Virus record (IMG/VR): IMGVR_UViG_2522572155_000001
Location: 64,001-128,000 of that record
Strand: one strand, 5' to 3'
Length of the DNA: 64,000 nucleotides
Origin: a virus
Taxonomy: Duplodnaviria > Caudoviricetes
Below the pieces are notes generated by a model that did no database searches, was not told the DNA's origin, and saw nothing but the letters and a program-made list of their open reading frames with translations. The number at the start of each line of letters is the position of its first letter. Position 1 is the stretch's first letter. A program made the position numbers and the translations under genes. Positions 3,320-19,638 of the stretch are shown here, piece by piece.

Positions 3320-4687
3320 TTAGTTGACCGATGGGACACGAAGGACAATGCCGCCAGCATCGTCCACGGCGAGGTCGATTACGTATGGGATAGTGCGCGC
3401 CGCCACCTTGCCGTCAACGGTTCGGAGGACGACGGATGTCGGCGTTTCGATCTCTCTAGCGCCAAGAGCGGTGAGGCGCGCGATGCTGTGGCCCTCCTTG
3501 ATCCAGGTCAGGAAGTGAGTGCTGTTGGCCCCAGCGCCAAGATACGCGATCGCTGCGGATCCCGATCGGATAATGAAGTTCGGAAGTAGCTGGTTACCCG
3601 ATGCGCTCAGCCCTAGCGCGCCCGAGCCTGTCTTGAGGTAGTTGCTTGTGACGACACCAACGGACTTGAAGCCTGAAACAACCACGCGAGTGACGCCCGC
3701 TCCGGCCCGAGCAATCTCCGTGTACGGCAAGAAGGTGTCCGCACCAGACGCGACGAACCTCTCCACTGCCCCGCCAGACTTCACGTGGGTCTGCGACGGT
3801 AGGAACTGCTTGCTACCGGAGGCAACCGTCCGGAGCGCTCCTGTGCCTGTCACAGGGTTGATGGCGGGCCGGATCCGTATCGAGAGCCCGGACCCGCCGA
3901 GGGCCGTGATCGCGGTACCCGTCTTGGAGATGACCGTGAAGGGGATGAAGAGCTTGGCGCCGGACGCAGTGCGCACCGTGATCGCTGCGCCGGTACGCGT
4001 CACGTGATGTTCCATCGCGCCACGTGCCTGCCAGCCGATCGGAGCCGCCAGGGACAGCATTCCGTAGCGCGGGGTCCCTGTGCCTCCGGCCCCACCGCCG
4101 GACGTCGACTTGACGAGAGAACGGGGACCCGAAGCTCCTAGCGCCGTGATGCCCGAGCCAGTCTTGATGATGCTGTTGAGCTTCCTCGTGCCGGTCGCGC
4201 TCCATCCGGGCGCACGAGAGAGGGTGAGCAGGCCGAATGACGGCGTGCCGCTGCCGCCTGCGCCGCCGCCTCGCTTGACGAGACGTAGGACGGCGACGGA
4301 CGCACCCGAGCCACTCCATGCAGTCGTAGCGGAGCCGGTTCGCTGCTTCGGGATAGCGCCGATCGCAGCGACGCCGGTCTTAGGAATGATATTGGCGACG
4401 ACGTTCGTCTTGCCGCCCGAAGCGGCCCAGGCAGATACTCCGGCGCCCGTCTTGGTCTTGTCGCTGTTATGTACCTCGGTGCCGGACCCTACCCAGATGG
4501 AGACGCCCGAGCCGGACTTGATGAATGGGATGGCTCCGAGGACGCCGATGCCGGACTTGGCCGTTTCGGCACCGACCGCACCGTGAAAGCTAGACCCAGA
4601 GGCAGTGAGGGTAGTCTTCGCTCCCCCGATGTTGAGTAGGGGTAGCTTGCCTAGCCCAGCAGAGCCCGTCTTGCTGTACGTAGGCAT
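3320..4687 (-). CDS. Gly/Ser/Thr-rich repetitive virion (fibre-like) protein
   Basis: 455 aa; recurring (K/R)TG(S/A)G...ASG units and an internal duplication. Confidence 0.6.
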   Translation of the reverse strand: MPTYSKTGSAGLGKLPLLNIGGAKTTLTASGSSFHGAVGAETAKSGIGVLGAIPFIKSGSGVSIWVGSGTEVHNSDKTKTGAGVSAWAASGGKTNVVANIIPKTGVAAIGAIPKQRTGSATTAWSGSGASVAVLRLVKRGGGAGGSGTPSFGLLTLSRAPGWSATGTRKLNSIIKTGSGITALGASGPRSLVKSTSGGGAGGTGTPRYGMLSLAAPIGWQARGAMEHHVTRTGAAITVRTASGAKLFIPFTVISKTGTAITALGGSGLSIRIRPAINPVTGTGALRTVASGSKQFLPSQTHVKSGGAVERFVASGADTFLPYTEIARAGAGVTRVVVSGFKSVGVVTSNYLKTGSGALGLSASGNQLLPNFIIRSGSAAIAYLGAGANSTHFLTWIKEGHSIARLTALGAREIETPTSVVLRTVDGKVAARTIPYVIDLAVDDAGGIVLRVPSVN

Positions 4688-13839: not shown

Positions 13840-13874
13840 GTCTATCCGTTACGACTTAGGTCGCGCCCGAAAAG

Positions 13875-13947
13875 TGGCTCTAGCAGGAGTCGAACCTGCG
13901 GCCTCTCCCTTATGAGGGGATCGCTCTGGCCTCTGAGCTATAGAGCC
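13875..13947 (-). tRNA. tRNA-CAT (elongator Met or Ile2)
   Basis: Cloverleaf GGCTCTA...TAGAGCC-A; loop CT-CAT-AA. Confidence 0.9.
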
Positions 13948-13953
13948 GGTGAG

Positions 13954-14025
13954 AGCCGCGTGCGGGACTCGAACCCGCGATGCCTGCTTGGAAGGCAGGA
14001 GTGTTGGCCACTACACCAACGCGGC
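13954..14025 (-). tRNA. tRNA-Gly(TCC)
   Basis: Cloverleaf; CCTGC-CTTCCAA-GCAGG. Confidence 0.92.
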
Positions 14026-14136
14026 GTGCAGAGAAACGGTGCTCTGATGCACCAGTTTCGCCTCGCGAGATTCTTACCTCCCGCGCCCTTCGGAAGAGGT
14101 GAAGGTCACCATCCATCTACCCGAAAGGGAAACATC

Positions 14137-14379
14137 ATGTCTCAGGTTGTCAAGCTCGACAGTCGCACGTTCGTAGCTGTCCCACAGCTAGCAATCGGCG
14201 CCCATACCATCGACGGATACGTGTTCGGCGGGATGCCGTACTACAACCCGGCGCCGGACTCCATTAGCGCCGTCACGATTTGGTGGAAGCTACTCGCGGA
14301 CCCGAGCTACGCGTCGTTGCCGCCGGTCACGTCGATCAGCGTGGAGACCACGGTCTCCGGTACCGTCAACCCGGTCTAG
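14137..14379 (+). CDS. Hypothetical protein, antisense to the tRNA array
   Basis: 80 aa from ATG 14137 with SD-like GAAAGGGA. Confidence 0.6.
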   Translation: MSQVVKLDSRTFVAVPQLAIGAHTIDGYVFGGMPYYNPAPDSISAVTIWWKLLADPSYASLPPVTSISVETTVSGTVNPV

Positions 14380-14579
14380 GAGAAGATCCGAGCGATCTGC
14401 TCGTGCGTCGCTCCCTGGGCGAGATAGCGACGCACGTCGTGGTGACTGAGGGCGAAGCCGTCCAAGCCCTTTGCATCCACGAGGCTCATCACCTGGTCGT
14501 CAACGAAGCCGAGCGAGCGAAACGTCTCGCTACGGTACGCCCTGATCTTGTCACCATTGAGGTCGGTGGTACCTGCCAT
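14376..14579 (-). CDS. Hypothetical protein
   Basis: 67 aa; SD GGGAG. Confidence 0.6.
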   Translation of the reverse strand: MAGTTDLNGDKIRAYRSETFRSLGFVDDQVMSLVDAKGLDGFALSHHDVRRYLAQGATHEQIARIFS

Positions 14580-14665
14580 TCTAAGCTCCCTATCAGAATC
14601 GAACTGATTTCCCGGGGTTACAAGGCCCGTGCATCTCCATCAATGCTTAGGGAGCGGGACGAGCC

Positions 14666-15199
14666 CTACTTCCTCGGGCTCTTCTTGTGTCGATGCAAGC
14701 GAGAAGCATGCGCGTTGAGTCGCCTGCGGGCGAGCTTCGCCGGGCTTGCTGCGAAGTTCACGTGGTGAGCCTCGGAGGCCGTGTGATACGGCTGGTGCAC
14801 CTTGTAGCCGTAGCGATGGAGCACGCGGAGTAGGTCATCCCATTCCGTAACGTCGAGACCTAGCTGATAGGGCCGGAGCTTGTGCCCGACGTGGCCGATG
14901 GTGCCATCTCCGAGCAGCAGGTGGGAGCCCTGGGTCGGTGGGTTCGCGGGCAGGAACCCGGGCAGGCGCTTCGTCCATCCGTTGAACAGGTACGCCTGGT
15001 CGTGAAGCTTGGTCTTGTGCCTCTTGTTGAACGACTTGATCGTGGATACGCGACGATCTGCCGAGACAAGGTGTCCCTTCCAGCCGTTGTTACGCGCGTC
15101 CTGGAGTGCCCATGCGAGGCCCCGGTAGACGGGCACATTGTCGAACTTGACGATGTGCCACGCCGGGTAGACCGTGCTCAGAAGCGGTAGGCGGCTCAT
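14666..15199 (-). CDS. Putative M15-type zinc peptidoglycan peptidase
   Basis: ANPPTQGSH...GLD...EAHHV fits the SxH..D..ExxH signature. Confidence 0.65.
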   Translation of the reverse strand: MSRLPLLSTVYPAWHIVKFDNVPVYRGLAWALQDARNNGWKGHLVSADRRVSTIKSFNKRHKTKLHDQAYLFNGWTKRLPGFLPANPPTQGSHLLLGDGTIGHVGHKLRPYQLGLDVTEWDDLLRVLHRYGYKVHQPYHTASEAHHVNFAASPAKLARRRLNAHASRLHRHKKSPRK

Positions 15200-15234
15200 G
15201 CCGCTTACGTGAGAGGCTCAACGATGAAGTAAGG

Positions 15235-15512
15235 TCACGCCCTATAGCCAGGATTCTGTCGTGGTCGATCATCTACCTCTGTATCGCGTATCGATACGCG
15301 ATACAGGCCACACCTTTACGTGGTGGCTGCCCTCAACCTTGCTCACCCCTGGTTGCCCTCGGGTGGCTATTGCGAGGTTGCACCCTGCCTCCCCACTGAG
15401 GTTCGAACGGCCGTAAGCCTCCCTCCGGAGGATCAGTATCTGCGACGAGGTTTGCCCCCGCCAGGGTGTCCTGAACTTCCTCTGGCCGAGGCCAGCGATC
15501 GACTAGGCGTGA
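15235..15512 (-). ncRNA. rnpB: RNase P RNA (compact, phage-encoded)
   Basis: CR-I GAGGAAGTTCAGGAC, CR-IV AGATGATCGAC, CR-V ACAGAATCCTGGCTA; P1, P2 (GTCGATC/GATCGAC), P3, 8-bp P4 with bulged U and P5 (CACC/GGTG-CAA) all pair. Confidence 0.88.
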
Positions 15513-15513
15513 G

Positions 15514-15586
15514 AGCCCACGCGGGGATTCGAGCCCCGGACCTCTCCCTTACGAGGGGAGCGCTCTACCTGCTGAGCTACGTGGGC
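15514..15586 (-). tRNA. tRNA-Thr(CGT)
   Basis: Cloverleaf; CTCCC-CTCGTAA-GGGAG; T-loop begins CTC instead of TTC. Confidence 0.88.
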
Positions 15587-15591
15587 GTGCA

Positions 15592-15664
15592 AGCCACCAC
15601 AGGGAGTCGAACCCTGGACCCCTGCCTTACCATGGCAGTGCTCTGTCCTCTGAGCTATGGCGGC
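15592..15664 (-). tRNA. tRNA-Thr(GGT)
   Basis: Cloverleaf; CTGCC-ATGGTAA-GGCAG. Confidence 0.9.
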
Positions 15665-15667
15665 GTA

Positions 15668-15739
15668 AGGGGTATGTGGGAATCGAACCCACCTTTGCGA
15701 CATGGCAAGCCACCGTAATAGCCGATATACGAATACCCC
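15668..15739 (-). tRNA. tRNA-Gly(GCC)
   Basis: Cloverleaf; GTGGC-TTGCCAT-GTCGC. Confidence 0.8.
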
Positions 15740-15753
15740 TTGTCTACTGCTAG

Positions 15754-15822
15754 CGCCCCAACGAGGAATCGAACCTCGCATCTCGGATTCGAAGTCCAAG
15801 CGCCAGACACACTGGCAAGGGC
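15754..15822 (-). tRNA. tRNA-Arg(TCG), aberrant D-arm
   Basis: Good T-arm and anticodon arm TTGGA-CTTCGAA-TCCGA; weak acceptor stem, non-canonical D-arm. Confidence 0.65.
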
Positions 15823-15827
15823 GGAAG

Positions 15828-15900
15828 TGCCCCCTACTGGATTCGAACCAGTGACCTCGGCCGTCGCAGGGCCGCGCTCTATCCACTGAGCTAAGAGGGC
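15828..15900 (-). tRNA. tRNA-Arg(GCG)
   Basis: Cloverleaf; CGGCC-CTGCGAC-GGCCG. Confidence 0.9.
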
Positions 15901-15937
15901 AGAGGGTGGGGTCACACACCGCTAGGACCCCACCCTG

Positions 15938-16534
15938 CTACTGATCGAACCGGCCTTCGAGCCAGTCCTTTACGAGGCGAGCCTCGTATACCTGGTCATC
16001 GCCTTCCGCGAGCAATTCGATGATCTTCGGGTGCTCGCGACGAAGCTGTTCCAGGAGGCGACGGGCGTTCGCCCGTTCCTCCTGCGTGAGGTACCCCACG
16101 ATCGAGACGGTGTTATCTCTGTCGTGGAGGTCACGGTGGCAGTCGATGCACACAGGGATTGTGCACCGTGACCGGGCGGCGACCTGTACGTAGTTGGATA
16201 GCTCCCGCATCATCCAACGGTTGACGTAGTGGTGCCTCGTGGAGTCCCCAGGACGGCCGCAGCAGCGACATTCAGGCTGAACCTGTCTCAGCGCTCTGTA
16301 GGCGTTCCTGCGCTCTACGATCTCGGCCGGGGGAGTACCCTGGTCTAGGGCATCACGCAGAGCCTCCACGATTTGCCCTTGCGTCGGGTGCGTATCGAGC
16401 AAGTCGTCAAGCTCGATCCCCGTCACCGTGGTGAGGAGTTCAAGCTGCTCGTGCGTTGCCTTGCGGCCATTGGCCGAAGCGTCGTACCACCAGGTGTCCC
16501 CGGTGGGGAGAGTGATGGGACGGGCGCGTGACAT
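15938..16534 (-). CDS. HNH-family endonuclease-like protein
   Basis: CRCC...TRHH...IPVCIDCHRDLH zinc/HNH pattern. Confidence 0.7.
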   Translation of the reverse strand: MSRARPITLPTGDTWWYDASANGRKATHEQLELLTTVTGIELDDLLDTHPTQGQIVEALRDALDQGTPPAEIVERRNAYRALRQVQPECRCCGRPGDSTRHHYVNRWMMRELSNYVQVAARSRCTIPVCIDCHRDLHDRDNTVSIVGYLTQEERANARRLLEQLRREHPKIIELLAEGDDQVYEARLVKDWLEGRFDQ

Positions 16535-16551
16535 TGTTCCTCACTGGTTAG

Positions 16552-16624
16552 TGCCGCGTACGGGAATCGAACCCGTGTTACCTACGTGAGAGGCAGGCGT
16601 CCTGGTCCACTAGACGAACGCGGC
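16552..16624 (-). tRNA. tRNA-Glu(CTC)
   Basis: Cloverleaf; CCTGC-CTCTCAC-GTAGG. Confidence 0.9.
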
Positions 16625-16632
16625 AGGTGGAG

Positions 16633-16707
16633 GGCGACCAGCGGGATTCGAACCCGTCGCTGCTGGAGTCACAGTCCAGAGTGCTAACCGCTGACACTAT
16701 GGCCGCC
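16633..16707 (-). tRNA. tRNA-His(GTG)
   Basis: Cloverleaf with G-1:C73; CTGGA-CTGTGAC-TCCAG. Confidence 0.9.
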
Positions 16708-16713
16708 ATGAAG

Positions 16714-16784
16714 CTGGGGAGCAAGGATTTGAACCTCAACTAACGGGGCCAAAACCCGTCGTGCTGCCGTTACACCACTCCCCA
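16714..16784 (-). tRNA. tRNA-Gln(TTG)
   Basis: Cloverleaf; ACGGG-TTTTGGC-CCCGT. Confidence 0.9.
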
Positions 16785-16798
16785 GTGGTTACTGCTGA

Positions 16799-16872
16799 TA
16801 GCGGGAGGAGGATTTGAACCTCCGACCTCCAGGTTATGAGCCTAGCGAGCTACCTGACTGCTCCATCCCGCA
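16799..16872 (-). tRNA. tRNA-fMet(CAT)
   Basis: Initiator-type body TGCGGGATGGAGCAG...CCCGCTA with 1:72 mismatch. Confidence 0.88.
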
Positions 16873-16887
16873 TGGGTGAACTGCAAG

Positions 16888-16962
16888 TACCCTCGCTCGG
16901 ATTCGAACCGAGACATGAACGGTGTTTGAAACCGCTACCTCTGCCAATTGGGCTACGAGGGC
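16888..16962 (-). tRNA. tRNA-Leu(CAA), short variable region
   Basis: Cloverleaf; GCGGT-TTCAAAC-ACCGT; 75 nt. Confidence 0.82.
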
Positions 16963-16963
16963 A

Positions 16964-17035
16964 TAGGGCGACGGAGAATCGAACTCCGGCTACGGGGGTG
17001 AAAACCCAGCGGTCTGACCACTAACCTACCGCCCC
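16964..17035 (-). tRNA. tRNA-Glu(TTC)
   Basis: Cloverleaf; loop TT-TTC-AC. Confidence 0.82.
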
Positions 17036-17047
17036 AGGTACTTCGAG

Positions 17048-17122
17048 TGCACCCACGAGGATTTGAACCTCGGACCTCCGCCTTATCAGAGCGGCGCTCT
17101 AACCAAACTGAGCTATGAGTGC
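17048..17122 (-). tRNA. tRNA-Ile(GAT)
   Basis: Cloverleaf; CCGCT-CTGATAA-GGCGG. Confidence 0.92.
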
Positions 17123-17126
17123 AGAG

Positions 17127-17198
17127 TGGAACGCCCCGGAATCGAACCGGGTACACCGCGAGTTTCAGCCGCGTGCTCTACCGATGAGCTAGCGCTCC
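17127..17198 (-). tRNA. tRNA-Phe(GAA)
   Basis: Cloverleaf; CGCGG-CTGAAAC-TCGCG. Confidence 0.9.
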
Positions 17199-17201
17199 AG
17201 G

Positions 17202-17294
17202 TCAGGCCACGAGGCAAAGGGGGAGCCTCGTCTGAGCGGCGTCATGGGACATCCCGGACCGCCGCTAGCGTCTCGCGATCCCCTCGTGACCTGA
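17202..17294 (-). ncRNA. Unassigned structured RNA A
   Basis: Termini pair (TCAGGTCACGAGG/CCTCGTGGCCTGA); inner stem AGCGGCG/CGCCGCT; fills the tRNA spacer. Confidence 0.5.
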
Positions 17295-17296
17295 AG

Positions 17297-17369
17297 TGGA
17301 GCCTAAGGGGTTCGAACCCTTCACCTCCTGCTTGCAAGGCAGGCGCTCTCCCAACTGAGCTAAGGCCCC
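17297..17369 (-). tRNA. tRNA-Ala(TGC)
   Basis: Cloverleaf with G3:U70. Confidence 0.94.
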
Positions 17370-17530
17370 ATGTCGTCGCCAAACGATTCCCACTTGGCGA
17401 TTGCACCATCTTCGAGATAGACGCGCCACCAGCGCATCCTCACGATCCTTCCGTGCGTATCCCATTCGACCCACACGTGGAACTGAATTCGGTCGTACGT
17501 GGGATGGTCGATGACCACCATCTGCTCCAT
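17360..17530 (-). CDS. Small hypothetical protein (56 aa) inside the tRNA array
   Basis: MEQMVVIDHPTYDRIQFHVWVEWDTHGRIVRMRWWRVYLEDGAIAKWESFGDDMGP; fills the spacer; stop lies within tRNA-Ala. Confidence 0.4.
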   Translation of the reverse strand: MEQMVVIDHPTYDRIQFHVWVEWDTHGRIVRMRWWRVYLEDGAIAKWESFGDDMGP

Positions 17531-17547
17531 GCACAAACGTAGTCGGA

Positions 17548-17634
17548 CGGAGAGAGGGAGATTCGAACTCCCGAGACACTTTCGTGTCTACCGTCTTTCC
17601 AGGACGGGCCGTTCAGCCACTCCGGCACCTCTCC
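17548..17634 (-). tRNA. tRNA-Ser(GGA)
   Basis: Cloverleaf with long variable arm. Confidence 0.93.
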
Positions 17635-17637
17635 AAG

Positions 17638-17721
17638 CGGAAGCAGAGGGAATCGAACCCCCGACGCTGTCACACGCAGCCGGGTTCAAACCGGTGTCCT
17701 CGTCCATGCCGGACTACTTCC
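17638..17721 (-). tRNA. tRNA-Ser(TGA)
   Basis: Long variable arm, atypical D-arm; loop TT-TGA-AC. Confidence 0.8.
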
Positions 17722-17724
17722 GTA

Positions 17725-17796
17725 AGGCGGGGAGGGGAATCGAACCCCTGTAACGCGCTTTGCAGGCGCGCACATAAGCCACTCTGTCACCCCGCC
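17725..17796 (-). tRNA. tRNA-Cys(GCA)
   Basis: Cloverleaf, U73. Confidence 0.92.
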
Positions 17797-17852
17797 GGGT
17801 GTGGACAAGCAGCAGTTTAGCAGTAGCGAATGCCCTGCACGCTACAGATAAG

Positions 17853-17924
17853 CTGGCCCGGGAGGATTCGAACCCCCGACATCCCGAGTAACAGTCGGGC
17901 GTTCTGCCACTGAACTACGGGCCA
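17853..17924 (-). tRNA. tRNA-Asn(GTT)
   Basis: Cloverleaf; CCCGA-CTGTTAC-TCGGG. Confidence 0.92.
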
Positions 17925-17943
17925 GTAGTTAGGTGCTGGTAGG

Positions 17944-18017
17944 TGGACCGTCCGGGATTCGAACCCGGATAGCAAGGGTAAGAGCCAAGTATGTTATCCA
18001 GTTGACATCAACGGTCC
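17944..18017 (-). tRNA. tRNA-Lys(CTT)
   Basis: Cloverleaf; anticodon stem CTTGG/CCTTG has two U-U mismatches. Confidence 0.78.
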
Positions 18018-18021
18018 GATA

Positions 18022-18109
18022 CGGAAGGAGAGGGAGTCGAACCCTCGGTACCCGGTTAGGGCACACTCGCTTAGCAGGCGAGCCTATTCGGCCTCTCTAG
18101 CATCCTTCC
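18022..18109 (-). tRNA. tRNA-Ser(GCT)
   Basis: Cloverleaf with long variable arm. Confidence 0.92.
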
Positions 18110-18111
18110 AG

Positions 18112-18183
18112 TGCCCCCGAGAGGACTCGAACCTCCAGCCTAACCCTTAGGAGGGGTTCGCTCTTCCGTTGAGCTACAGGGGC
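18112..18183 (-). tRNA. tRNA-Arg(CCT)
   Basis: Cloverleaf; AACCC-CTCCTAA-GGGTT. Confidence 0.9.
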
Positions 18184-18191
18184 GAAGATTG

Positions 18192-18322
18192 CCCACCAAG
18201 GCTTGTCCGCTTGCCTGTCCTCCGTGCGGAGGAGATCGGTCCTGACCGCAGACATGTATCCGATCTTTCAGTCTGCGGGTAGGCGGTTTCGCCTGGCTCG
18301 TAACCGATCCAGGTCGGGTGGG
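18192..18322 (-). ncRNA. Unassigned multibranch structured RNA B
   Basis: Nested helices CCCACC/GGTGGG, CCTG/CAGG, GATCGGT/ACCGATC, AGGCG/CGCCT, CCGCAGAC/GTCTGCGG, TCCTCC/GGAGGA. Confidence 0.55.
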
Positions 18323-18328
18323 ACTTAG

Positions 18329-18709
18329 TGGAGGCGCCGGGAGTCGAACCCGGGTGTTCCGTGCGCGTATCTCGCCAGTCTTTCAGCAGCTTAGGCCGTA
18401 GGTGGCCATCCACAATCTAAGGACACAGGCTAGCTGTGTCTCCACCACCTGCTCGATACGGTCGAGCAGGAAACCGGCCCTCCGTTTAGGAGGGCGTCAC
18501 CCGGAGTTCTGGTCCTAGGCCCCGGGAGCCCGCGCCGTAGGTTACGCTACGGCTAGAAGTGCTTCCAGTTCGTCCTCGACGGTCATAGTGACCTCGGACG
18601 GCATGGAAGCGATGATGTTCTCGCCAGTTATGGCTTGTGGCAGGTAGGTGTGCCGACCGCTGCACTGCTCGGGACTGCATCTCACGGAGTCGAAGCCATG
18701 TTCGCCCCC
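18329..18709 (-). ncRNA. ssrA: tmRNA
   Basis: 5' GGGGGCGAA..GG..TTCGAC, 3' T-arm GGTTCGACTCC and CGCCTCCA with G3:U70; ATAACT-G resume context; tag ORF 18625-18542 GENIIASMPSEVTMTVEDELEALLAVA*. Confidence 0.93.
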
Positions 18710-18713
18710 AGGA

Positions 18714-18778
18714 GGTTCGCCACTCCGACCACCCTTCGCGGGTGGACCCGGAGCGCTCGAAGTCTCCGGCTGCGAACC
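18714..18778 (-). ncRNA. Unassigned structured RNA C
   Basis: Closing stem GGTTCGC/GCGAACC; inner CGCTCCG/CGGAGTG and CCACCC/GGGTGG. Confidence 0.4.
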
Positions 18779-18779
18779 A

Positions 18780-18852
18780 TGTACCCCACAGGGCTCGAAC
18801 CTGTGACCTCGTGCCTGTCAAGCACGTGCTCTCCCAACTGAGCTAGGGGTAC
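18780..18852 (-). tRNA. tRNA-Val(GAC)
   Basis: Cloverleaf; CGTGC-TTGACAG-GCACG. Confidence 0.92.
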
Positions 18853-18855
18853 GGA

Positions 18856-18928
18856 TGCGCGGTGACGGACTCGAACCGCCGACCTACCGGGTGTAAACCG
18901 GTCGCTCTCCCAACTGAGCTAACCGCGC
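18856..18928 (-). tRNA. tRNA-Val(TAC)
   Basis: Cloverleaf; ACCGG-TTTACAC-CCGGT. Confidence 0.93.
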
Positions 18929-18937
18929 GAGGTATAG

Positions 18938-19009
18938 CAGGGGATACAGGACTCGAACCCGTAGCCTCGGTTTTGGAGACCGAGATGTTCGCCTTTACAC
19001 CAATCCCCT
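18938..19009 (-). tRNA. tRNA-Trp(CCA)
   Basis: Cloverleaf; CTCGG(T)-CTCCAAA-(A)CCGAG. Confidence 0.92.
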
Positions 19010-19014
19010 GGGAG

Positions 19015-19088
19015 CGGTAGTGACGGGGCTCGAACCCGCGACCTCTGCCGTGACAGGGCAGCGCTCTAACCAACTGAGCTACACCACC
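19015..19088 (-). tRNA. tRNA-Asp(GTC)
   Basis: Cloverleaf; CTGCC-CTGTCAC-GGCAG. Confidence 0.94.
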
Positions 19089-19099
19089 AGGTACTTCTA

Positions 19100-19174
19100 T
19101 CAGGATGAGAGGATTCGAACCTCCGACTTCTCGCTCCCGAAGCGAGCGCTCTGGCCAGACTGAGCTACACCCTG
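19100..19174 (-). tRNA. tRNA-Pro(CGG)
   Basis: Cloverleaf; CTCGC-TTCGGGA-GCGAG. Confidence 0.93.
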
Positions 19175-19186
19175 TTACCGCGTAAG

Positions 19187-19268
19187 TACACCCGGAGAGA
19201 TTCGAACTCTCAATCCCGAAGGCACTGGTTCCTAAGACCAGCGTGTATGCCAGTTCCACCACGGGTGC
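19187..19268 (-). tRNA. tRNA-Leu(TAG)
   Basis: Cloverleaf with variable arm. Confidence 0.92.
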
Positions 19269-19271
19269 ATA

Positions 19272-19337
19272 AGCGACGAGGCCGAGGGAGGGAAGGGACC
19301 TGGAGGTGCAAACCATGAACCAGGGGGCCTCGTCGCT
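19272..19337 (-). ncRNA. Unassigned structured RNA D
   Basis: 12-bp perfect closing stem AGCGACGAGGCC/GGCCTCGTCGCT, inner CCTGG/CCAGG, pyrimidine bulge TCCCTTCCCTCCCTC. Confidence 0.5.
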
Positions 19338-19339
19338 AG

Positions 19340-19420
19340 CGCGCCCTCAAGGAATCGAACCTCGCCAGCAATTGCAACCGGGTTACAGCCGGTCGGGAAC
19401 TCCAGTTCCCCATAGAGCGC
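19340..19420 (-). tRNA. tRNA-Tyr(GTA), atypical D-arm
   Basis: ACCGG-CTGTAAC-CCGGT; variable arm; 6-bp D-stem GGGAAC-TGGA-GTTCCC. Confidence 0.8.
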
Positions 19421-19425
19421 GAATG

Positions 19426-19530
19426 ACGCAGGCTCACTGATTCGGGCGCGACCACGGAGCAACTAGACCCCAGCTAGGCTTGGGGGCCATGCGGTATTTC
19501 ACCGCTGCACTCAGGAGGATTACCCTGCGT
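19426..19530 (-). ncRNA. Unassigned structured RNA E
   Basis: Closing stem ACGCAGG/CCTGCGT; hairpins GCGGT-GAAAT-ACCGC and GGCCCC/GGGGTC. Confidence 0.4.
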
Positions 19531-19566
19531 TGAGACGTTGATATGTACCGGTGTCTCAGACCGGAG

Positions 19567-19638
19567 TGTCCTCCAAGGGACTCGAACCCTTGACGATGCC
19601 CTTAGAAGGGGCGCGCTCTGCCGCTGAGCTAGGAGGAC
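19567..19638 (-). tRNA. tRNA-Arg(TCT)
   Basis: Cloverleaf; loop CT-TCT-AA; first tRNA of the operon. Confidence 0.9.

Follow-up and report, generated by a model that had tools for sequence, protein, structure and literature searches.

RNase P RNA, the ribozyme trimming new tRNAs, is regarded as a cellular and organellar gene. In the RNA of bacterial type A, encoded by rnpB (the M1 RNA of E. coli; family RF00010 in Rfam), the tRNA T-loop is read by CRII/CRIII (J11/12 and J12/13) of the specificity domain (S-domain, P7-P14), and the GNRA loop of P18 docks into P8. The natural loss of most of the S-domain, with the catalytic domain (C-domain) kept, has been described for the type T RNase P RNA of Pyrobaculum/Thermoproteaceae (PMC3579882). 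In the laboratory, the C-domain of type A RNA alone cleaves less efficiently, whether or not the C5 protein is present, and in such C-domain ribozymes a P6-like pairing helps and P18 is unnecessary (PMC5839562). As for phages, they appear solely as sources of substrates in a 2024 review on RNase P (PMC11143913), and no published report of a virus-encoded RNase P RNA was found in full-text searches of a collection with few papers from subscription journals.

Within the window, i.e., the whole stretch of 64,000 nucleotides (64 kb) analysed here, an RNase P RNA-like gene occupies positions 15229-15514 on the minus strand (286 nt as delimited by Rfam; 15235-15512 from P1 to P1′), as do all the elements of this RNA given hereafter. 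An earlier note on this DNA had proposed a 278-nt RNase P RNA lodged in a tRNA array and starting 2 nt past tRNA-Thr(CGT); each of the elements it listed is present as stated, on the minus strand, the distance to the tRNA being measured as 0-2 nt. When the covariance-model search suggested in that note is run, RF00010 is matched over its full length (model positions 1-367) with 40.2 bits and an E-value of 3e-11 for the 451 nt searched, or about 4e-9 by our arithmetic when scaled to the 64-kb window; in the clan competition of Rfam, RF00010 is the best family retained for this RNA and no archaeal affinity is seen. Because this score falls under the gathering score of RF00010, namely 100 bits, the gene is missed when the entire window is scanned with Rfam under its default gathering cut-offs, a scan that lists 28 of the tRNAs and the tmRNA but no RNase P RNA.

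The framework of RF00010, namely P1-P2-P3 together with P4 formed from CR-I and CR-V with a bulged U, is found with all its helices. P1 pairs UCACGCC (15506-15512) with GGCGUGA (15235-15241), P2 joins GUCGAUC (15497-15503) to GAUCGAC (15264-15270) by seven perfect pairs, and P3 is a short hairpin, CUGGC-CUCG-GCCAG (15482-15495), with 5 bp and a CUCG loop, all three being confirmed as first noted by direct reading of the sequence. CR-I, i.e., the P4 5′ strand GAGGAAGUUCAGGA, spans 15469-15482 with its bulged U at 15474, as read from the sequence and from the RF00010 alignment, and CR-V, i.e., the P4 3′ strand ACAGAAUCCUGGCU, spans 15246-15259, with 8/8 pairs formed between the two: P4 itself consists of AGU(U)CAGGA (15477-15469) and UCCUGGCU (15253-15246). 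Compared with the type A consensus, four of these eight pairs differ, three by compensated changes on both sides and one being now U.G, in line with the compensatory changes relative to E. coli initially claimed for the 8-bp P4. In E. coli numbering, the double-sided changes still paired are 67-359, 71-356 and 74-353, and the pair turned into U.G is 68-358. The CR-I string of the window is identical in relatives retrieved independently via the 3′ strand.

P5 is formed by CACC (15465-15468) and GGUG (15381-15384), the latter running into the CAA of J5/15 (15378-15384 for both), which aligns to GgaGCAA of RF00010 and corresponds to the position of the A248-type active-site adenosines. P15 (CUC/GAG) and a P16/17 hairpin, CACCC-12 nt loop-GGGUG, are placed at 15332-15376 by the constrained fold and family columns, with an L15-type GGU at 15336-15338 just 5′ of the P15 3′ strand (GGUUGAG, 15338-15332); the string AGCAAGGUUGAGG of this P15-17 region is identical in four relatives (L235, L244, L260 and L247). 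A candidate P6 of 4 bp would pair CUGG (15461-15464) with CCAG (15349-15352) in the P16/17 loop, in competition, in the constrained fold of the window RNA, with an extension of P5. J18/2, AGGUAGAU (15271-15278), aligns to AGAugAAUG of RF00010 and the next G opens P2, the resulting string AGGUAGAUG (15278-15270) being the same in the GC-rich members L242, L231 and L261. As such, GGUGCAA, AAGGUUGAGG and AGGUAGAUG align to RF00010 or family columns for J5/15, P15/GGU and J18/2, and the other landmarks of the earlier note are recovered at the same places, i.e., P5 with its CAA at 15468-15465 and 15384-15378, TTGAG within GGUUGAG and AGATGA within the J18/2 string.

Where a type A RNA has ~150 nt or more between the P5 strands, the window RNA has ~80 nt (15385-15464). 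Nothing in it is aligned to RF00010 model positions ~75-215, i.e., the specificity domain, and P8/P9, J11/12 (ACAGARA), J12/13 (GGUGAAA) and CRII/CRIII are unrecognisable. From the constrained fold and the family sequences, this remnant is predicted to adopt a small branched structure, and it holds a GGAGG-GAG-hairpin-GUUCGAA-CCUC module common to other reduced members. At the P18 position, two insertions are present, namely a hairpin with a GUAAA loop (15307-15327) predicted by the constrained fold, in which no P8 partner for it is recognisable, and a perfect 28-nt palindromic hairpin (15279-15306) read from the sequence, which occurs once in the window and is absent from all relatives; elsewhere in the family, the P18 position holds 0-2 hairpins.

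Respective to the described systems, the window RNA has in common with type A RNA P1-P3, the P4 pseudoknot with bulged U, P5 and probably P6, as well as J5/15, P15 with GGU, P16/17, J18/2 and CR-I/CR-V, in the same order and topology, but it is encoded by a virus, reaches 40 bits where the gathering score is 100, is off consensus in 4/8 P4 pairs, and exhibits an S-domain (P7-P14, CRII/CRIII) of ~80 nt and, in place of P18, two hairpins of non-canonical form. It is also a second, diverged copy, the host possessing its own canonical RNase P RNA on another contig (C3:274685-275007; 246.6 bits). While type T RNA is archaeal, cellular and associated with archaeal proteins, the window RNA bears bacterial type A signatures (L15 GGU, P15-17 and J18/2), and the likeness between the two is probably an architectural convergence rather than membership. 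Compared with the engineered Eco CP RPR (PMC5839562), the same parts are retained, the phage family keeping a probable P6 and having P18 as an option; Eco CP RPR results from laboratory deletions, whereas the phage RNA is a natural gene, probably under selection in phages, with a small, remodelled S-domain remnant.

The survey of related phage genomes advocated in the earlier note was carried out and yielded ~25 further distinct RNAs, on viral and metagenome contigs, sharing the compensated P4, i.e., GAGGAAG(U/C)UCAGGA together with ACA(A/G)AAUCCUGGCUAUAGG. Searching with a 15-mer from the 5′ P4 strand led to two IMG/VR contigs with RNase P RNAs over the gathering score, L099 (170.3 bits) and L128 (111.8 bits), both located in co-oriented tRNA arrays. 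Taken alone, the 15-mer GAGGAAGTTCAGGAC was rejected as a family marker, with at least 118 stretches matched, mostly by chance; L132 (coding sequence) and L220 (chance) are false matches to it. A second search by the independent P4 3′ strand, ACARAATCCTGGCTATAGG, retrieved 6 stretches from viral records, 7 from genomes and 34 from metagenomes, 31 of which carry GAGGAAG(U/C)UCAGGA 106-346 nt upstream and, together with the window and L151, amount to 26 distinct sequences with a GC content of 27-62%. Throughout 185,579 species genomes, the 3′ and 5′ motifs are found together once, on a MAG contig whose RNase P RNA is identical to the one of a 455-kb viral contig; the 3′-motif matches on bacterial chromosomes (L224-L229), considered as possible cellular RNase P genes, have neither 5′ strand nor tRNAs and were discarded as chance. 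A profile built from 11 family members other than the window has a single match in the window (E 2e-12) and a single one in the genome (E 2e-10). Once the two P4 motifs are masked, this 11-member nhmmer profile does not recover the window RNA, indicating that outside P4 the support is structural rather than a matter of sequence similarity.

The RF00010 scores of the family form a continuum, i.e., 191.5 (L233), 170.3, 111.8, 82.8, 72.8, 53.0, 52.9 and 40.2 bits, the last being the window RNA, the lowest-scoring of those that RF00010 still picks up; several smaller ones escape this model. The smallest, L237, is ~165 nt long with P5 capped by a 6-nt loop, and L250 has RNaseP_arch as its best match (30.6 bits). 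In L233, a ribonucleotide reductase (RNR) 51.5% identical to the RNR of the window lies upstream of the array, so that L233 and the window agree in gene order; this shared RNR-array order hints at an origin of the reduced window RNA from a complete one in related phages. This synteny is limited to L233, since a set of 80 viral loci, each centred on an RNR homologue, contained no P4 pair of the RNase P kind and a single locus with at least five tRNAs. By BLAST of the 451 nt against 50,697 phage records, the tRNA part alone was matched, and against 400 genomes of the host family (four of them unpublished, namely G003, G142, G235 and G386), with a query including tRNA-Thr, the matches listed were all to tRNA-Thr and none to the RNase P part. 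No close relative of the window copy by which purifying selection on it could be gauged was found in the phage records or host-family genomes searched.

The relatives exhibit some peculiarities of their own. In L247 (147-359, plus strand), an insertion of ~170 nt at the S-domain position contains an intact, cysteine-rich ORF of 70 codons starting with MECLICGKCC, i.e., a protein gene nested within a ribozyme gene. On the tRNA-bearing contig L236, a GOLLD-like match (RF02032; 1485-1979, plus strand; 134.6 bits for a gathering score of 150) is situated ~850 nt downstream of the reduced RNase P RNA. Inside the tRNA array of L099, a 265-kb viral contig, the RNase P RNA has as its neighbour a YrlA-like (Y RNA-like) match (3857-3968, minus strand) that scores 44.6 bits, short of the gathering threshold, and a tmRNA-like fragment is present at 3486-3564. 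The GC-rich metagenome contig L249, which carries a reduced RNase P RNA, has 27 tRNAs, one of which with the anticodon CUA, i.e., of the amber-suppressor type, and labelled Pyl by ARAGORN.

Covariation was assessed on an alignment of 18 sequences, the window included, with P1/P2/P3/P4 as the structure scored; as the MAFFT alignments A1-A3 misalign the interior, the anchored columns alone were used. The P1-P4 cells are paired at 92.7%, compared to 30-41% when the 3′ partners are slid by 1-3 columns, and the covariation score is 0.59, compared to 0.08-0.13 when slid, a value reached by 0/500 shuffles. Among these 18 members, changes on both sides are seen for 8 pairs of P1, 6/7 pairs of P2 (of which 96% of the cells are paired across the family) and 3/4 outer pairs of P3, while P4 is invariant in the family, which is partly an artefact of the P4-based retrieval of its members. 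P5 covaries (CAUC/GAUG, CAGC/GCUG, CUAC/GUAG, CACU/AGUG, CUGC/GCAG, CUCC/GGAG), as does P15 (CUCA/UGAG, CACA/UGUG, CAUA/UAUG). The P6-like pairing, between the nucleotides after the P5 5′ strand and the P16/17 loop, recurs in members with differing sequences, and in a swap control on 18 non-redundant members the permutation p is ~0.0007, the native pair of the window ranking first; given that shuffle tests on single sequences are weak, P6 is rated as probable in the phage family.

The genomic context is a tRNA array of 32 tRNA genes plus a tmRNA (13874-19638, minus strand), the presumed substrates, in which all 33 genes are co-oriented with the RNase P RNA. The tRNA-Thr(CGT) directly upstream (15513-15586, minus strand) has no encoded CCA, and the same holds for the entire array (encoded CCA in 0/33 genes), where many spacers are of 0-14 nt; in the primary transcript, the conserved GGU of the ribozyme as such lacks an encoded CCA partner. 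Neither promoter-like nor terminator-like sites were found across 14.5-16.7 kb. Together, these traits fit the earlier proposal of a phage-owned maturase for a packed tRNA polycistron. The same arrangement prevails in the family: at 19/19 loci holding tRNAs, the strand of every tRNA is that of the RNase P RNA (e.g., 28/28, 26/26 and 33/33), and in several members the next tRNA begins 5 nt or less from the 3′ end of the RNase P RNA. In the window, it is a 177-codon ORF that starts 30 nt downstream of this RNA. The array is interrupted by this same-strand ORF (14666-15199, minus strand, 177 aa) and by another (15938-16534, minus strand, 198 aa), the latter with a weak match to an HNH-endonuclease PHROG (E 2e-4); both may be insertions of the homing-endonuclease type. 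The tmRNA (18326-18709, minus strand) is barely over the Rfam threshold (49 vs 47 bits), and the tag peptide predicted for it is unusually long, with 27 residues and ALLAVA at its end. At 15753-15843 (minus strand), ARAGORN calls a tRNA-His(GTG) of 91 nt, which overlaps tRNA-Arg(GCG) by 17 nt and on which the Rfam tRNA model is silent; the call is thus erroneous, or else the element is tRNA-like but non-canonical.

The phage nature of the locus is apparent from the genes of the window for a large terminase, tail sheath, baseplate wedge and virion proteins, as well as for replication proteins, namely a phage-type DnaE, DnaB, primase and class II RNR. The window belongs to contig C5 (603 kb, without Ns) of a genome of 6.64 Mb with 72.5% GC, where it falls in an island from ~215 to ~380 kb with a lower GC content of 62-67%, bordered on the left by ordinary host genes and on the right, exactly at the edge, by a tyrosine integrase. 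These phage genes, the low-GC island and the integrase at its edge lead to the conclusion that the RNase P RNA is carried by an integrated myovirus-type prophage of ~165 kb, in agreement with the earlier view of a phage-borne RNase P RNA, which the type A homology, the phage genes and the island with its integrase now support. A comparison of the island ends for att-like direct repeats of at least 17 nt revealed none. Two GC tiers are discernible in the island (C5 of G000), i.e., ~65-67% at ~215-280 and ~350-380 kb and ~62% at 280-350 kb, and it may as such be composite rather than one prophage. An actinobacterial host was considered and rejected: WhiB was not found in the 96%-complete genome, so the host is probably not an actinobacterium. 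As regards the protein subunit, the sole rnpA of the genome is the host copy on C2 (264872-265198); no rnpA was found in the window, as the earlier note had stated, nor in the prophage island, nor in five related viral records, two of which are rated 100% complete. The island does encode a member of the PolyA_pol/CCA-adding-enzyme family (C5:275238-275615, minus strand; 88.5 bits), ~12 kb before the window, the host copy of this family being at C5:145528-145899.

Considering this structure and context, we regard it as probable that the prophage encodes an RNase P RNA derived from type A, with a complete catalytic domain, which matures the 5′ ends of a densely packed tRNA transcript in partnership with the host RnpA. 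For its co-transcription, catalysis, protein partner and substrates, we infer the following course. The RNA would be transcribed within the phage array of 32 tRNAs and tmRNA, and its own 5′ end would be released once the abutting tRNA-Thr is processed. It would then assemble, most likely, with the host RnpA, which is the most economical model since neither the island nor the five related viral records has an rnpA, and the resulting enzyme would cleave the 5′ leaders of the packed phage pre-tRNAs devoid of CCA. Because the spacers are very short, each 5′ cut would release the 3′ end of the upstream gene as well, so that one cut per tRNA could dismantle the polycistron, and the tRNAs would then be completed by the enzyme of the CCA-adding family that another part of the prophage encodes.

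Among the other explanations, the one that fares best is that the family is functional and the window copy is a decaying relic, unneeded by the resident prophage, in which the shrinkage of the S-domain and the palindrome are signs of erosion. Its position at the bottom of the RF00010 scores detected, the 28-nt palindrome peculiar to it and the lack of close relatives revealing selection are compatible with such a decay. However, insertions at the P18 position, where the family has 0-2 hairpins, concern a part dispensable for the C-domain (PMC5839562), and several members that are smaller, and lower-scoring or undetected, still covary. In addition, the core of the window copy is intact, with 7 bp in P1, 7 perfect bp in P2, 5 bp in P3 and 8 bp in P4 along with P5 and P15, and J5/15, the GGU and J18/2 are retained, so that erosion appears unlikely. 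A second explanation would be a non-catalytic mimic, binding the host RnpA or pre-tRNAs and thereby titrating or redirecting the host RNase P. Such a role could account for the loss of the domain reading the tRNA elbow in a phage without its own protein subunit, and the parts retained by the phage RNA include regions known to be bound by the bacterial RNase P protein. It is nonetheless the catalytic parts that are most strictly retained, i.e., the P4 bulged U, the J5/15 adenosines, J18/2 and the probable P6, for which a decoy has no need, while the location amid substrates and the graded series starting from a complete type A RNA suit an enzyme; a decoy is accordingly quite improbable. Finally, the likeness could be fortuitous, or the RNA an unrelated structured spacer within the tRNA array, as the score below the Rfam gathering threshold and the null result of the masked sequence profile could have suggested. 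This is effectively refuted by the full-length match to RF00010 (E 3e-11), the positions of all helices as set by the two P4 strands, the 112-191 bits of relatives and the clear outcome of the covariation controls.

The reading of the RNA as a maturase working with the host RnpA can be extended, more tentatively, to an RNase P lineage that does not read the tRNA elbow. It is possible, though doubtful at this stage, that such an RNA forms together with the phage CCA-adding enzyme, tRNAs and tmRNA a self-sufficient production line, dicing a polycistron nearly devoid of spacers, in many members cutting out its own 3′ end at the next tRNA, acting on unusual phage tRNAs without need of the host RNA subunit, and possibly serving as an insurance against host shut-off or tRNA-directed defence.

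Beyond this locus, default Rfam thresholds overlook a class of phage RNase P RNA. The natural series, from a complete type A RNA down to ~165 nt, reveals which parts of the ribozyme are dispensable in evolution and parallels the C-domain constructs made in the laboratory. As the window copy resides in an integrated prophage of a sequenced bacterium, which gives access to the RNase P RNA and RnpA of the host and to the full set of 33 candidate substrates, experiments of reconstitution, induction and knockout are directly designable.
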